The notes below the pieces were generated by a model. The model saw only the letters and a program-made list of their open reading frames with translations, searched no databases and was not told the DNA's origin. Position numbers and translations under genes: made by a program. From Antechinus flavipes (lineage: Eukaryota), in contig NC_067402.1 in the NCBI RefSeq assembly GCF_016432865.1, positions 116,994,001-117,058,000 on the forward strand: DNA of 64,000 bases. Direction: 5' to 3'. Of this stretch, positions 2,430-51,699 are shown in pieces. Each line of letters begins with the position of its first letter. The first letter of the stretch is position 1.

Positions 2430-3420
2430 GTTTTCAAGCTCATATCACCATTAGCCCATTGTCCTTTAAACACCTCAAATTCAATATGTTCAACAAAGAA
2501 TTTATTGCCCTTCTTTCCAAACTTGCCTCATTTTTCTGATTTCTAGAAATAAAAGACACACCTGTCCTTTTAGTCACTCAGGATTACAATCTAAGAATTA
2601 TCCTTAAAGTTATCTTCTTTCTCATTTCCCCTTCACTCCTAGTATCCTAGCAGTTACCAAGTCTTGTCACTCAAACTCTATAACATCTCTTGCATGATTT
2701 GTTCTCTTCTTTCATTTCACATGGCTACTATCCTAGTCCAGGACATCATCTCATTTCCCATGAACTATTATAAATTGTGAATTTCTTGGGAGCAGAAGTT
2801 CTCTCTGGTCTCCTAACTAATCTCTCTGAATCACGTTTCTGCCCTATCCAGTCCACCTTTCACATATTGGCAGAGTGACATTTCTAGAGCATAAGTTTGA
2901 TGCTGTTCTCCTACTCAAAAAATTCTATGGGCTCTGTCACCTGAAGAATAAAATGAGAAATAATTCAATGGACATTTAAAGCTTTCCACAAGCTGGCTTT
3001 AGCCTATCTTTCTAGGTAGTATTCATTTCTATCCTTCATAGACTGTGTTCTTGCCAAACCAAGATACTTGTTTTTACTCATATATGACATTCCATCTTTC
3101 TCTGAATTTTTGCATAGCCTATCTCTCCTTTTCTCATCCTTGACTCTCAGAACACATATCCTCATGTATTAGCTAGTTCAAGATCTACTTCCAACAAGAC
3201 TTACCTCATTCCCTGAGTAGTAATAATACACTCTACCCATCATACCTTTTCCCCCATTTCTACTTTATAAGAATTTTTTATTTATATGTGTCCATGTATT
3301 TCCCCTAACAGAAGCTCTTTGAAAGAAGTAGTTATTTGTTTTTTTCTTTATCTTATCCATACCTGACACAGTGAATGATTGGCCCATTGAGGATACTTTA
3401 AGTATTTGATTGTTTGATCC
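2430..3420 (+). mobile_element. L2 LINE 3' region
   Basis: cacctcaaattcaatatgttcaacaaagaa..., ccactttcacatattggcagagtgacatttcta and an L2 3' end-like tail. Confidence 0.7.
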
Positions 3421-12071: not shown

Positions 12072-12770
12072 GAGGGCAGCTTGGTGGGGCAGTGGGATAT
12101 AGTTCTGGCTCCAACCATAAACCCTGATTTCTTCCGGAGTCAGGAAGATCTGAGTTCAAATCCAGCTTCAGAGACTAATTTGAGCAAGTCACTTAACCCT
12201 ATTTGTTAGGATTCTTACAAGGTGCTAAGTGGAATGAGGAGATAATGGTTAAATCTAGTTTAGCACTGATTTAATCCTACAACAAATAATGTTTTCCTAG
12301 TGATATAATGTGTGGAACATATAAAGAAAAGCTGTCAGGGCCAGAAAGAACAAGTGCACTAGAAGCTCTTGGAGGCTGAGACAGATTCATTCCATCGTCC
12401 ACCTTTGTTGTGCTGGAGGCTCAAGCACAAACCTTTGGATTTGGAGACATTTTGAGGAAGCTAGAGGCAGAAAGTGGCAGAGGCAAAGGACTAGTGGCAG
12501 GGAGCTCTCGGAACCAAGGAGAGAGATAGGCCTCTAAGAAAGCTAACTGGGCCCCAGGAAAAGAGACAAAACTTTGAAGGAGACAATAAAGGATCTGGAC
12601 TTTAACTCCTGGCTGCATTTGGGGAGATTACTGAACTGAAAGGAAGGCTACTCCTAGAAGCCCCCCAAGAAACCTGCTCCCAGAGAACAATACATTTAGA
12701 GAAGAATATTATACCTATTGCCCTCAAAAAAAAAGGATAAAAAAGGAAAAAAAAAGGAAAATGAAAAAAG
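12072..12770 (+). mobile_element. CORE-SINE (WSINE1-like) split by the solo LTR
   Basis: gggcagcttggtgg...gagtcaggaagatctgagttcaaatcc...gcaagtcacttaaccc | LTR | gccctc plus A-rich tail. Confidence 0.8.
12204..12713 (+). mobile_element. Solo LTR (class II ERV-like) with 6-bp TSD CCTATT, nested in a SINE
   Basis: Begins TGTTAGG and ends TTATA (decayed CA). CCTATT at 12198-12203 and 12714-12719, AATAAA ~125 bp before the end, and the SINE 3' end resumes right after the TSD. Confidence 0.85.
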
Positions 12771-44864: not shown

Positions 44865-45040
44865 ATATATATATGTCTGTCTGTCTCTATATATAACTGT
44901 CTGTCTCTGTCTGTCTATATATCTATCTGTCTTTATCTGTTTTTATATGTCTCTCTGAATCTGTCTATATATGGCTTTCTCTGTCTTCTGCCTATATATC
45001 TAAGTGTCTCTCTGTTTCTGTCTAAATGTCTCTCTATCTA
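44640..45040. repeat. Degenerate (TCTA/TCTG)n low-complexity tract with a pure (CT)n core at ~44825-44862
   Basis: Read directly. Confidence 0.92.
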
Positions 45041-46260
45041 AATCAATTGTTTCTGTGGCTTTCATTTCTAGTCAGAAATAATTATTGAGTGCCCTCTTTC
45101 TCAAAAACTATAGAAAGGACAAGGAAGAAATATGATGGGGAAAAAGACATAATTTCTTCCCAATAGTGGATTATATGTTAGTTGGGTAGACAACATAATA
45201 TCATAACAATATTTATAAGGAAGTTTACCAATGGCTATAAATTAATGAAGTAGAAAAAGAACTCATAAATAATAAGGGATAAGGAAAGATTAGAGTGAAA
45301 TACATTTAATCAGAGAAAGCAGTCTGAAGGTCACTAAGAAGTAACCATGTAGCAACATTATGTGAGATAATTCTATAAACCACAAATGATTATTAAATGA
45401 TCAAAAGGATTCTTCACAATTATATACCCACACATATGTGCATATCTATCTATCTATCTATCTAACTATATATATATATATGAATATATGTGTTTAGTGG
45501 GAGCAGATATGATTTTGTAGGAACCTAAAATACTTAGTTTATTTATCACCCACAAAAAGGAACATTTTAAAATGTAGACAAGGACAAGAGAGAGAGGCCT
45601 TCTTAAGTTCTAGGTAAATGTGAAAATATTAAGCCTGGAAATTTATGAGTTGTGTGAATGAAGTGACTTTTTTTCCCCTAAAATACATTATTGGTAAGAA
45701 AAGCTGAAAATGACATTACTGAGACATTAAATAGGTTTGAAGACCTTTCAAAGGATGGAAATTTTATTCATGAACCAGGAGTCACTTCTTTTAGATCCTA
45801 GAGCAGGGGTAAAACAATTTTTTTTTCACATGAAATTGTAGGCAATTAATAGTGTGAATGATTTAGAAGAGGAAAAGAGCTTAGAGATAGAGAAACTAGC
45901 AAGTTGGCTATTACAATAGCCTAGCTGCAAAATGATATGATGTTAGGTGAACAAATAAAAACTGGGTAGAGCCAATAAGATAACACTATTGGGAAGAAAT
46001 TGTATCTCTTTTCCCCCCTCATAACTCTTCTTTGTCCCTTCTATAATTTTTGAGAAACAGAGGACACTCAATAATTATTTCTGACTAATTAGAAATTAAA
46101 GCCACAGAAACAATTGAATTAGATACATAGAAAAATATTTAGACAGAGAAAGATAGACACTTAGATATATAGGCAGAAGACATAGAGATCATATATAGAC
46201 AGAGACAGACGTATATAGACAAAGACAGATAGATATATAGACAGAGACAAACAGTTATAT
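44891..46260. repeat. Old inverted duplication: 44891-45168 vs 45984-46260 (roughly 80-85% identity, ~815-bp spacer)
   Basis: Manual reverse-complement alignment, e.g. caattgtttctgtggcttt, gtcagaaataattattgagtg and atttcttcccaatagtg. Confidence 0.9.
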
Positions 46261-46407: not shown

Positions 46408-46930
46408 GATATATGGATACAATTAATAATAACAATAATAAAGGAAATGTTACAAAAATGTTAGCCTTAAGAATCCTGACATTAGTTAATTGTATTATGA
46501 AAGGTAATAATAATAGCAACAATAATGAGGGGGATTTAATATTTGCAAAGCACTTTCCATAGAATATCTCATTTTATCCTCACATGAACATTGGGAAGTA
46601 GATACTATAATTATTTCCATTTTACAAATGGGGAAACTGAGAAGACAGAGTTTAAGTGACTTGCTCAGCATCAGACAGGTAGCAAATTTTGAATAAGGAA
46701 TTTGAACCTAGGATTACCTGATTCCACATCAAGCATTTAATTGATGAATCTATAATTGCTCGTGCTTCATCCTTTCTGTTTAGTCATTATAATCCATAGT
46801 TGATAGCACTAACATTCTTCTATTATTATTACCTTTCATAATACAATTAACTAATGTCAGGATTCTTAAGGCTAACATTTTTGTAACATTTCCTTTATTA
46901 TTGTTATTATTAATTGTATCCATATATCAT

Positions 46931-47079: not shown

Positions 47080-49479
47080 ATATAACTGTTTGTCTCTGTC
47101 TATATATCTATCTGTCTTTGTCTATATACGTCTGTCTCTGTCTATATATGATCTCTATGTCTTCTGTCCTATTTCAGATGACATCAGCTTGAGGAGCGAA
47201 TGTCTCTCTTACTATGCCAAACTAGATCAATAACTGTTAATTTTATTTATTTTTAGGCTTTTAAAAATTAATCCATTTATTTTAATAAATACTGATTTAT
47301 GAATCATGTTGGGAGAGAAAAATCAGAACAAGAGGGAAAAATCACAGAAGAGAAAAAAAAGTAAATATAGCATATGTCACTTTACATTCAATCTCCATAG
47401 TTATTTTTCTGGATGCAGATGGCATTTTCTGTCCAAAGTCTATAGGGATTTTGTTGGATCACTGAACCACTGAGAAAAACCAAGTCATTCATAGTTGATC
47501 ATTGCACATTCTCACTGTTACTTTATACAATGTATTCCTGGTTCTGCTTGTTTTGCTCAGCATCAGTTTGTACTGTAAATCTTTGCAGGCCTTTCGAAAA
47601 TCAACTTGTTCACCATTTTTATAGAACAATAATAATCCATTGCCTTCATATATTTCAACTTATTCGGCCATTCCCCAATTGATGAGCATTCATTTTCCAA
47701 TTTTTTTTCCACAAAAGAGCTATTAGAAACATTTCCCTTCTTTATAATTTCTTTGGAATACAGACCTTCATTCTTGGTATAAATCCCATTTGGTCATAGC
47801 ATATTATCCTGTTGATAAGTTGCTGTAATCTCTTTGCTAATATTTTATTTAAAATTTTTGCATCAATATTCATTAGGGAGATTGGTCTGTTATTTTCTAT
47901 CTCTGTTTTGATTCTTCCTGGTTTAGCTATCAGTATTTTATTTATATTATAGAATGAATTTGGCAAGAAGCTTTCTTTGCATATTTTCCCAAATAGTTTA
48001 CATAGTATTAGAATTAACTGTTCTTTAAATGTTTGGTAGAATTCACGTGTGAATCCGTCTGGACCTGGAGATTTTTTCTTAAGGAGTTCATTAATGGCTG
48101 GATCAATTTCTTTTTCTAAAATTGGGACAATTTAAGAGATTCATTTCCTCTTTTGTTAATTTGGGCAATTTTTTTTGTAAATATTTGAACATTTTGGTTA
48201 GATTGTAAGATTTGCTGACATACACAGTTGGGCAAAATAGCTCCTAATTATTGCTTCAATTTCTTTTTCATTGGTAGTAAATTTACCCTTTTTATTTTTA
48301 ATGCTGGTGATTTGATTTTTTTCTTTCCTTTTTGTAATCAAATTAACTAAAGATTTATCTTTATTTTTTCATAAAACCAATTTTTAGTTTTATAAATTAG
48401 TTCAATAGTTTTCTTAATTTCAAATTTATTAATATCTATTTGTTTCAGGATTTCTAAATTAGTATTTAATTGGGCATTTTTAATTTGTTCTTTTTCTAAC
48501 TTTTTTACTTGCATGCCTAATTCATTGATCTCCTCTTTCTCTATTTTATTCGTGTAGATATTTAGAGAAAATTTCCCCAAAGAATTGCTTTGGCTACATC
48601 ACATAGATTTAGTATGTTGTCTCATTATTGTCATTGTCTTGGATGAAATTATGGATTATTTATGTAATTTGTTGTTTGACCCATTCATTTTTTAGAATTA
48701 GATTATTTAATTTCTGATTGGTTTTTAGTCTATTTTCCCTGGCCCTTTATGGAACATAATTTTGTTTATACTGTAGTCTAAAATGAAGCATTTATTATTT
48801 CTTACTTTCTGCATTTGAGTGAGGTTTTATGCCCTAATATATGATCAATTTTGTGAATATGCCATGTATTGCTGAGAAAATAGTATTTTCCTTTCTGCCT
48901 CTATTCAATTTTCTCCAGAGGTCTATCATTTCTAGGTTTTCTAGCATCCTGTTTACCTCTGTAGTTTCTTTCTTGTTTATTTTGTGGTTAAATTTGTCTG
49001 ATTTTGAGAGGGGAACATTGAGGTCCCCCACTAGAATAGCTTTGCTGTCTATTTCTTCTGAATTGACTTTATATATATTTTCTAAGAATTTGTATATTCT
49101 ACCACATAGTGCATATAGAATTAATAAGTTATTACTTTATTGTTTATGATACCCCTTATCAAAATGTACTTTCTCTCCTTATTTCTTTTAATGACATCTA
49201 TTTTTACTTTTATTTTTTCTAAGATAAAAATTACTACCCCTATTTTTTTTCCCTTCAGTTGAAGCATAATAAATTCTGTTCCAGCCTTTTACCTTAACTC
49301 TGTATGTGTCTCTCTGTGTCAAATGTCTTTCGTGTAAACAACAAATTGTAGTATTCTTTTTAAATCCATTCTGCTATTTGCTTCCATTTTATGGGAGAGT
49401 TCATCTCATTCGCATTCATAGTTATGATTGCCAGCTCTGTGTTTCCTTCTATTTCATTTTCTCCCCTCATATGCTTTTG

Positions 49480-50541
49480 TGTTGGAATCCTTACTAACTG
49501 CTAAGTAATTAGAGTAGATCTAATCTTACAAGAAGATGTTTTGGGCAGAACCTGAAACAAGGTACTAAGTAGAACTAATTAAGACAAGGCTTGTGTTCAC
49601 ACCTTTACTCACTGGAGTCCACAAGTATGCTAGCTTCACAAAGTACACTTTCTACACCTCCCTTAAAGCTCATTGGGCCAGAGAGCACTATGGGAGAAAA
49701 CCCATAATCCCATTCTCTCAGAAGAGGCAGATAAAAGGCCAGCGATGAGGGATCTATGGCAGAATACATTTTTTCCTCTTGGCTGGCTGATCGCGCTGGA
49801 CTCGAGAGGAACGACTCTGGTGCAGAGAACACTTTGACGGATTTCAGTGGAGCTACGCCAGAAGCCCTCTCCCTGTGGCAAAACCGTCCATTCATTATCT
49901 TTTATAAGGCTCAGCTAAATTGACACTGGGCACCGAAAAGGCAAATCTCTTCACATCCTCCTTATCCAGAGGAATGGAATAGAAACAATCCTTGATGTCT
50001 AATAACCCAAAGAGGCCATTCTCTAGGAAGCTGAGTAGGAGATGGAAGTCCAGGCTGAAGAGTTCCCATAGTTTCCATCTGTTCGTTCACTTTTCTTAAA
50101 TCAGTGAGCATCCTCCATTTTCCCGATTTCTTTTTTACAACGAACACTTTGAGGGCTTCTGGTGTAGCTCCACTGAAATCCGTCAAAGTGTTCTCTGCAC
50201 CAGAGTCGTTCCTCTCGAGTCCAGCGCGATCAGCCAGCCAAGAGGAAAAAAATGTATTCTGCCATAGATCCCTCATCGCTGGCCTTTTATCTGCCTCTTC
50301 TGAGAGAATGGGATTATGGGTTTTCTCCCATAGTGCTCTCTGGCCCAATGAGCTTTAAGGGAGGTGTAGAAAGTGTACTTTGTGAAGCTAGCATACTTGT
50401 GGACTCCAGTGAGTAAAGGTGTGAACACAAGCCTTGTCTTAATTAGTTCTACTTAGTACCTTGTTTCAGGTTCTGGCCAAAACAACTTCTTGTAAGATTA
50501 GATCTACTCTAATTACTTAGCAGTTAGTAAGGATTCCAACA
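49480..50541. mobile_element. Palindromic class II ERV-derived element: inverted LTR halves flanking an RT fragment, 6-bp TSD
   Basis: Starts TGTTGGAATCC and ends GGATTCCAACA, with CTTTTG at 49474-49479 and 50542-50547. 49480-49869 is the reverse complement of 50151-50541 apart from 3 substitutions and 1 homopolymer indel. It is CpG-rich relative to the background. Confidence 0.93.
49870..50150 (-). pseudogene. Betaretrovirus-like (ERV2/ERVK class) reverse transcriptase N-terminal fragment with two +1 frameshifts
   Basis: The minus strand translates [92 protein letters not shown]. This carries the class II RT motifs [20 protein letters not shown], IDxKDCF and LPQG. Confidence 0.95.
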
Positions 50542-51699
50542 CTTTTGTTCTCTCTTTCCACCCTTGACCCACTCTATCCACTAACTTATCTTCTATAATC
50601 CTCCCTCTTATATTAGTATTGTTTTTTCAACTTATCCAGCCCATTAACTTACCAACTTCTATCACTCTCACCCTTTCTCTTACCTTTCTTTCCTTAGTAT
50701 TGCTGCCTTCCCTTATATCTAGCTTTTCCCTCTTTTTTATACTTCCCATTTGGTTGATTCTAGTTTTGAAGGTGCTGTTTTCTTCAGTGTTCTTTTTTTT
50801 TTTTTTTTTTTGCATTTAGACAATTGTATTTTTTAAGGAATTCCTTTTCCAAGAAATTGACTCTCTTTTACATACCTCATATTTCTTTCCCATTTTTTCT
50901 TCTACCTCTCTTATTTGTTTTTTAAAGTTTTTTATGGGCACTTCTAAGAAGCCTCTTTGGGCTTGAGACCAATTCATATCCCTCTTTGAGATTTCCTCTG
51001 TGGACATTTTGTCCTTGTCTGAATTTGTATTTTGGTCTTCCCTGTCACCATAGCAGCTTTCTACAATCAAGGTTCTTTTGTTTCTTGCTCATTTTCTTTC
51101 CTTTTATTTTGGTATTTTCTCTTTATTTTTTTTTTCTTTTTGATCAAGCTCTGTTCCTGGGAATAAGGGTGCTGTCCCCAGATTCCTATGCAATTCTGGA
51201 CCTTGGCTTTGAGCATAGTGGCCCCTTGTGATTACAAGGGGTAGCTTTGTCTGCTCTTTTCAGGAAACAGCCTGGTTTCCCCATATTTGCATTCTGAGCT
51301 GAGACTGGGGGCTGCCCATCTGAATTGCTCCTCTACTTAGCCAGCACTGAAGATCTATGGTTGATTTGCTGTGATTAAGACTGTCTCACCAACTTTCTAA
51401 GAGTCTGTTTGAGCTAGGCTGAATACTCTTCTTACCCCAGTGAGACTGACCTTTCTTGAAGTTTTTCAAATTTATTTTGAACTGGAGAATAGTTTCATTC
51501 CATCAGACTCAGTTCAAAGACTTTATTTCATATGTTTTTTGAGGGAAACTGGGAGACCTCAAGCAAGTTCCTGGCTTCACTCTGCCATTTTGGTTCCACG
51601 TCCCAAAAGATTCAATAACTGTTAAGTTTTAAAAAGGTTCATCTGTATTTATTTTTACATTAAAACTTGCATTTATTAATATTTTCCCAATCTAAAATT

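Follow-up and report, generated by a model that had tools for sequence, protein, structure and literature searches.

A single-copy endogenous retrovirus insert with two outward U3 ends in Antechinus flavipes, and a recurrent class of U3-U3 inserts in the same genome

The window analysed here is a 64,000-nucleotide stretch of the Antechinus flavipes genome (NC_067402.1, 116,994,001 to 117,058,000), and our subject is a 1062-bp insert at its positions 49480-50541, flanked on both sides by the target-site duplication (TSD) CTTTTG. The insert begins with TG, ends with CA, and consists of two inverted long terminal repeat (LTR) arms of 390 and 391 nt that enclose a fragment of reverse transcriptase (RT) sequence (Table 1). 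The arms are exactly three substitutions and one T-run indel apart, and a TATA-like GATAAAA is found at LTR nt 251 of the left arm. The RT reading frames lie on the minus strand of the middle segment, frameshifted and split over two frames. Neither a primer-binding site (PBS), nor a polypurine tract (PPT), nor a tyrosine recombinase was found in the insert. In its description of the termini, the TSD and the arms the original prediction agreed with the sequence throughout; the enclosed 281 bp are antisense class II RT as it proposed, with the correction that only about 278 of these bases belong to RT.

Table 1. Parts of the U3-U3 insert and its flanking duplications, in window coordinates
Feature	Position	Strand	Description
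Left TSD	49474-49479	+	CTTTTG; from the sequence
Left arm	49480-49869	+	LTR nt 1-390, sense, U3 end outward; 99% to 40 scored copies; full LTR 589 nt
Left junction	49870-49881	+	TCCCTGTGGCAA (antisense RT) in place of LTR nt 391-402 (TCTCCGYGGCAA)
RT fragment	49871-50148	-	278 nt, frameshifted; parent internal nt 2822-3097; 98.6% to natural parent copy
Right junction	50142-50152	+	GAACACTTTGA, 11-nt copy of arm nt 348-358
Right arm	50151-50541	-	LTR nt 1-390, U3 end outward; 391 nt (one extra T)
Right TSD	50542-50547	+	CTTTTG

The insert derives from a family of endogenous retroviruses (ERVs) with many relatives in the genome. The 40 copies scored against the arm sequence were the best of 2509 candidates, the RT piece likewise matched 40 scored copies at 99% (best of 1451 candidates), and the first 25 LTR bases have 11,119 exact matches. 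Natural proviruses of this parent family are about 6.7 kb long and carry gag, pro and pol with no env-sized frame; 3-kb non-autonomous forms also exist. Its solo LTRs are 589 nt long with 6-bp TSDs, LTR lengths in the family run from 405 to 797 nt, and the family often nests in itself, with TSD sequences that are diverse and show no site preference. The top PDB match of the parent Pol was 7sr6 (E 2.7e-151), for RT, and its integrase matched 7usf and 3jca; we take the first to be the RT of HERV-K and the others to be the integrase of mouse mammary tumour virus. By its RT and the integrase of its parent, the insert is a class II (betaretrovirus-like) ERV derivative, and the parent family has the further features of that class, namely a tRNA-Lys PBS, a PPT, TG..CA ends and the 6-bp TSD, which is normal for the family just as had been supposed.

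In the 3' LTRs of the family the PPT (GAAAGGGGGAGA) lies directly 5' of the arm's first base, and the PBS follows nt 589. Therefore each arm is LTR nt 1-390, and both ends of the insert are the U3 end of the LTR of a young, env-less class II ERV. The same assignment had been proposed by comparison with a solo LTR elsewhere in the window (12204-12713), and it now has behind it the PPT and TSD evidence of near-identical family copies. That solo LTR is an older element with an apparent TSD, CCTATT, and an AATAAA near 12587; it resembles the arms over about 40 nt at its start and in one 54-nt, 87% match, and is only a distant relative. No AATAAA that could mark the limit between R and U5 was found in the a-type LTRs.

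Each of the two junctions between arm and RT, searched for as a 24-25mer with one mismatch allowed, occurs once in the genome. The window element is single-copy and not amplified, so the idea that it might be a multi-copy derivative resembling a miniature inverted-repeat transposable element (MITE) was given up. Its other proposed exclusions held. A canonical provirus or solo LTR has directly oriented LTR sequence with one U3 and one U5 end, and here both ends are LTR nt 1. Terminal-repeat retrotransposons in miniature (TRIMs) share with the insert a small, LTR-derived size, and DIRS1-type elements and MITEs share its long terminal inverted repeats. A TRIM, however, is multi-copy with direct repeats, PBS and PPT, whereas this insert is a single copy with inverted arms and neither site; a DIRS element encodes a tyrosine recombinase and leaves no TSD, whereas the insert has a 6-bp TSD and a parent that encodes a retroviral integrase; and MITEs are moved in trans and build up many near-identical copies.

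Inserts with two U3 ends are nonetheless a recurrent class in this genome. A second one, with its own TSD and a PBS-to-PBS junction, was present among the first LTR loci fetched (L028). We sampled U3 termini by a flank-letter pattern that is symmetric under reversal, and four of the first 100 termini (222 rows in the list) were paired with an opposite-strand terminus and a complementary TSD. In a continuous run of this flank-selected list all 58 loci were fetched, five rows with GGGGGG flanks having been left out as probable PPT variants. A U3-U3 structure came with an exact 6-bp TSD at four of these loci and with a 5-bp TSD at one, 46 loci had U3-U5 elements or solo LTRs and seven were unresolved; counting exact TSDs, the U3-U3 rate is 6.9% (4/58; 95% confidence interval 1.9-16.7%). 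Since U3-U3 elements can be sampled from either end, we estimate their share of family insertions at roughly 3-7%, or a few hundred loci, a genome-wide figure extrapolated from samples and not a direct count. Among the first 100 termini drawn as exact LTR-start matches there were five convergent pairs, two with an exact TSD (L087 and L111), one a near miss and two with a PPT on one side.

A set of 286 loci, many selected through searches for junctions, contained 70 convergent U3 pairs. An exact 6-bp TSD was present in 28 of these, where re-paired flanks would give 0.12. Re-pairing was used as the control in place of sequence reversal (10 matches), which serves poorly since inverted repeats survive it. 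The 28 elements leave out L269, whose U3 start differs from the pattern. The search for which reversal had been the control gave 25 matches, from which L198 was dropped as non-family: at L198:933-7144 lies a 6.2-kb stretch with inverted 15-nt termini and TTTAAA on both sides. U3-U3 elements are between 471 and 4117 bp long, each of the 28 has a structure of its own, and the best single-alignment coverage between any two is 0.72. The smallest of these sizes is that of an element found by chance in a flank (L275:2622-3092, TSD GTGTCT), which folds at a TGGGA/TCCCA hairpin in the LTR. The U3-U3 elements at L087 and L111 have exact TSDs and both enclose non-viral DNA. Inside the L111 element (501-1911) a full-length copy of 5S ribosomal RNA (rRNA) at L111:655-773 (Rfam RF00001, 63.6 bits) begins right after LTR nt 178 and is followed by about 560 nt absent from other loci; it may be a capture of cellular RNA.

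The inner junctions of these elements are stereotyped. Head-on PBS junctions gave 68 matches against 9 in the control, and a tighter pattern gave 48/46 against 0; in the usual form a complete 18-nt PBS overlaps its partner's inverted PBS by GGGC. Within the fetched stretch an exact-TSD U3-U3 pair was present at only 13 of 55 such loci, the others including U3-U5 elements with two inversions, longer elements, near-TSD cases and older LTR types, and the number of PBS-PBS junctions is therefore not a count of U3-U3 elements. A unit of LTR-PBS-(inverted PBS-U5)-PPT-LTR is found in tandem at L067/L068, repeated twice, 698 bp apart. A second kind of junction, from the PBS into antisense RT, is present in 205 copies against 0 in the control, and here the terminal GTGGGGC of the PBS has its complement, GCCCCAC, in RT. 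Among 30 fetched copies of this hotspot the LTR types and far ends varied. Of 24 hotspot loci examined, five were U3-U3 (four with an exact TSD and one with 5/6), nine were U3-U5 with a second inversion and ten were unresolved. At L267, L268 and L269 two hotspot junctions face each other within one element, L269 being U3-U3 with an exact TSD. In most of the U3-U5 hotspot cases sense sequence resumes 3' of the hotspot, which would follow if the minus strand had not yet passed this site and RNA was the template; selection against long palindromes could also have this effect.

The 18-mer at these junctions is the Lys1,2 PBS (table in PMC1084362). In a hand count of 79 a-type U5 ends followed by this PBS, 26 continued into antisense RT, 6 into an inverted PBS, 26 into the a-type leader, 11 into other leaders and 5 into other sequence, while 5 read on into tRNA-like TCGAACCC or ACGAACCC. 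A T-to-A change at the m1A58 position is carried by three of these five read-throughs, and TCGAACC is presumably the complement of the tRNA T-loop. Read-through into the tRNA and a change at position 58 are reported, in the available excerpts of PMC12657518, for delayed transfer in HIV. Many elements have arms from different LTR types, L163 joins a Lys3 PBS to a Lys1,2 PBS, and further mixtures of arms or PBS types are exemplified by L028, L079 and L174, along with L163 itself; such mixtures argue that two genomes were involved. The precise start of the junctions where the 18-nt PBS ends, the run-on of some into tRNA sequence and the mixed arms place the inversions of the class at the plus-strand strong-stop stage, with two genomes taking part. 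A variant PBS may be a contributing cause. It is found on Pol-encoding copies (3 of 6 long-Pol loci, another being truncated and two showing no PBS) and would mismatch the tRNA copy at its 3' end; by eye it is present in 11 of 13 normal a-type proviruses, whereas 17 of 19 junction sides have the tRNA-type PBS.

The RT piece of the window element extends to parent internal nt 3097, against 3115 for the hotspot, which puts the left breakpoint 18 nt from the hotspot. The LTR sequence lost at this breakpoint and the antisense RT sequence that replaces it are imperfect direct repeats, about 230 nt apart in the hotspot product. At the right junction the minus strand runs to LTR nt 390 and continues with AAAGTGTTC, the reverse complement of arm nt 348-356, the last 7 nt of which also match RT. 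Read on the plus strand, the first 7 nt of the copied segment also match RT and the last 2 match the LTR, and the TT at 50149-50150, which comes from neither RT nor LTR nt 391-392, lies within this 11-nt copy of arm 49827-49837. The copy would be a snap-back insertion, and with the minus strand taken as the growing strand each microhomology lies on the side already made. The left arm has A57/G66, a common haplotype (80 of 275 LTR starts), and the right arm T57/C66. Two of the four arm differences thus match common family haplotypes and do not look like decay. This match, the frequency of the class, the position of the left breakpoint beside the 205-copy junction and the snap-back copy at the right junction go beyond what had been predicted.

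We consider it probable that the window element is a single-copy defective ERV with two outward U3 ends and a 6-bp TSD that arose in the course of reverse transcription, when two plus-strand LTR DNAs copied each other, and was inserted by integrase. An origin by plus-strand template switching had been proposed at the outset, and it fits the junction data, from which all steps of the following scheme are drawn. A plus-strand strong-stop DNA, made up of the LTR and an 18-nt copy of the tRNA-Lys1,2 PBS, would miss its normal second transfer; its 3' end GTGGGGC would pair with GCCCCAC in sense RT, probably in intact genomic RNA, and be extended in antisense. A second plus strand, stopped at LTR nt 390, would fold back, copy 9 nt of itself and pair by AGTGTTC with the antisense RT extension. 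The two strands would then extend along each other to give a blunt U3 end on both sides, one of them skipping the roughly 230 nt from LTR 391 to the PBS between the imperfect repeats. Integrase would use both U3 attachment (att) sites, and viral integrase likely placed the insert; lacking PBS and PPT, the product would be a dead end.

Several observations weigh against this scheme. PBS junctions, a feature of aberrant plus-strand transfer, occur in the class, but the window element itself has no PBS, and its descent from a hotspot product is argued from the repeat and from a distance of 18 nt. The scheme does not explain why the arms both stop at nt 390-392; the 5' LTR of the L061 provirus (L061:1068-1457) has its break at nt 390 as well, where the middle of a PBS is joined on, and nt 390 may be a recurrent stop site. 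Both arms also share A37, found in only four other copies genome-wide, which suits a single template or later conversion better than two unrelated templates; together with the haplotype difference, this sharing suggests two templates plus a switch or later conversion. The hotspot occurs with other LTR types and older copies as well, and the variant PBS therefore cannot be the sole cause. The excess of U3-U3 pairs (4/96 loci) over U5-U5 pairs (0/40) was not significant (p=0.32). Finally, no junction-bridging read or contig was found among the pieces listed, which were contigs of four runs; this is evidence neither way.

The two arm observations bear also on a different history, in which a longer U3-U3 element integrated and was trimmed to nt 390 later, in the chromosome, by cruciform breakage and end joining of the polymerase-theta type, which would also have left the 9-nt snap-back. 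The common end point of the arms is in line with such trimming, the rare shared A37 suggests exchange between them, and synthesis-dependent microhomology repair typically leaves templated insertions in inverted orientation. We nevertheless regard this course as rather improbable: with 2-4 differences over 390 nt the element is young, L061 has the nt-390 break without an inverted partner, and long near-identical arms persist in other U3-U3 elements (494 nt at 100% identity in L075).

Nor does it seem at all likely that a normal U3-U5 provirus came first and that a template switch at a replication fork, by way of the short terminal inverted repeat, put an inverted copy of the 5' LTR in place of the U5 end. 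The U5 end, when reverse-complemented, does have 4-7 nt in common with the U3 start, the TSD would be kept, and the shared A37 would fit a single template. Such a switch predicts identical arms, however, while many elements have arms of different LTR or PBS types, and it accounts neither for junctions that fall precisely where the tRNA copy ends nor for the tRNA read-through. The contrast between the variant PBS of normal proviruses and the tRNA-type PBS of junction sides also speaks against it, and the window element would need four switches.

An assembly artefact, whether a fold-back long read or a mis-joined repeat, is still less probable. Palindromic chimeras are a known long-read artefact, and the want of a junction-spanning read leaves room for one here. 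The TSD is exact, however, and the arms are non-identical, differing by family haplotypes; a paralogous copy of the host repeat at the target (L189) has a single TTTTTG at the corresponding place; and a run X20 contig from organism G is a perfect match over 49389-49480, while its other 263 nt depart from the window, as those of an empty site would. The independent TSDs of 28 loci and the tRNA-derived junctions likewise make an artefact unlikely. Two opposite insertions at one site followed by a deletion are, together with a self-amplifying MITE-like derivative, the least probable course, since PBS sequence at inner junctions is not an integration product, TSDs are diverse without site preference, the junctions are single-copy and structures are not shared, even if double insertions of transposable elements are described in the available part of a Drosophila study (10.1101/158386) and the family nests in itself.

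The proposed origin by mutual copying of two plus strands has partial parallels elsewhere. Defective HIV-1 proviruses arise from aberrant second (plus) strand transfer according to the available excerpts of PMC12657518 and PMC9278108, and the window element would resemble these products. As far as those excerpts go, however, the aberrant HIV-1 transfer is to the minus strand and yields collinear deletions, with no mention of two-U3 proviruses or of a fixed inverting hotspot; the words 'inverted' and 'inversion' occur 0 times in the portion of PMC12657518 at hand. In integrase-independent insertion of Tf1 and HIV, as outlined in part of PMC11042837, a single-stranded PBS copy at the cDNA's 3' end pairs with a short PBS-like sequence, as is proposed here. 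The partner there is chromosomal DNA, and most HIV cases are LTR-truncated without a TSD, whereas the present class has a viral partner and a 6-bp TSD, with the outer ends exact on both sides.

The parent family is likely MEBrv 3, an env-less betaretrovirus-like ERV of Dasyuridae described in the accessible text of PMC11334065, judging by gene layout set against that text. Both are class II with gag-pro-pol and no env, very high copy number and near-identical LTRs; MEBrv 3 is given as 7.3 kb with an LTR of 469 nt, compared with proviruses of about 6.7 kb and LTRs of 405-797 nt in the present family, and 'inverted' is absent from that text. In the full-text literature searched, two-U3 proviruses were nowhere described as a class of genomic element; most older and subscription virology lay outside its scope, so that a prior description is possible. 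The window element is also distinct from autointegration products, in that its LTR ends join host DNA and its inversion points lie inside the LTR or, in the class, at the PBS. Autointegration joins LTR ends to the viral interior, and Shoemaker (1980) reportedly obtained autointegration inversion circles, in which part of the retroviral DNA is likewise inverted. In vitro, integrases can also use U3-U3 donors.

Elsewhere in the window, and unrelated to the ERV, a 109-bp AT-rich inverted repeat of 100% identity (46408-46516 / 46820-46928) lies between N stretches and adjoins an 83% inverted pair of simple repeats (44891-45168 / 45984-46260).

If mutual copying of plus strands is the true origin, these loci preserve errors of strand transfer, and plus-strand synthesis from two genomes, on a scale that is rare in infection experiments, and a betaretrovirus-like integrase performs concerted, TSD-exact integration in the germ line with two U3 att sites. 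We advance only tentatively, as possible but open to doubt, the wider proposal that the strong-stop 3' tail is a hot primer for both a partner PBS and a 7-nt RT site, that it has left hundreds of two-U3 inverted repeats with convergent promoters and antisense-pol copies in the germ line, that integrase needs no U5 in vivo, and that the element thereby seeds its own double-stranded and antisense RNA. By our estimate one mammalian genome has in this way gained a few hundred long inverted repeats that are young and whose LTR promoters face each other; hairpin or antisense RNA might arise from them, and so might breakage. Annotation tools that seek direct LTR pairs would miss or mislabel such inserts. 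The U3-U3 class may therefore lie unnoticed in other ERV-rich genomes, where it could be counted from existing assemblies.

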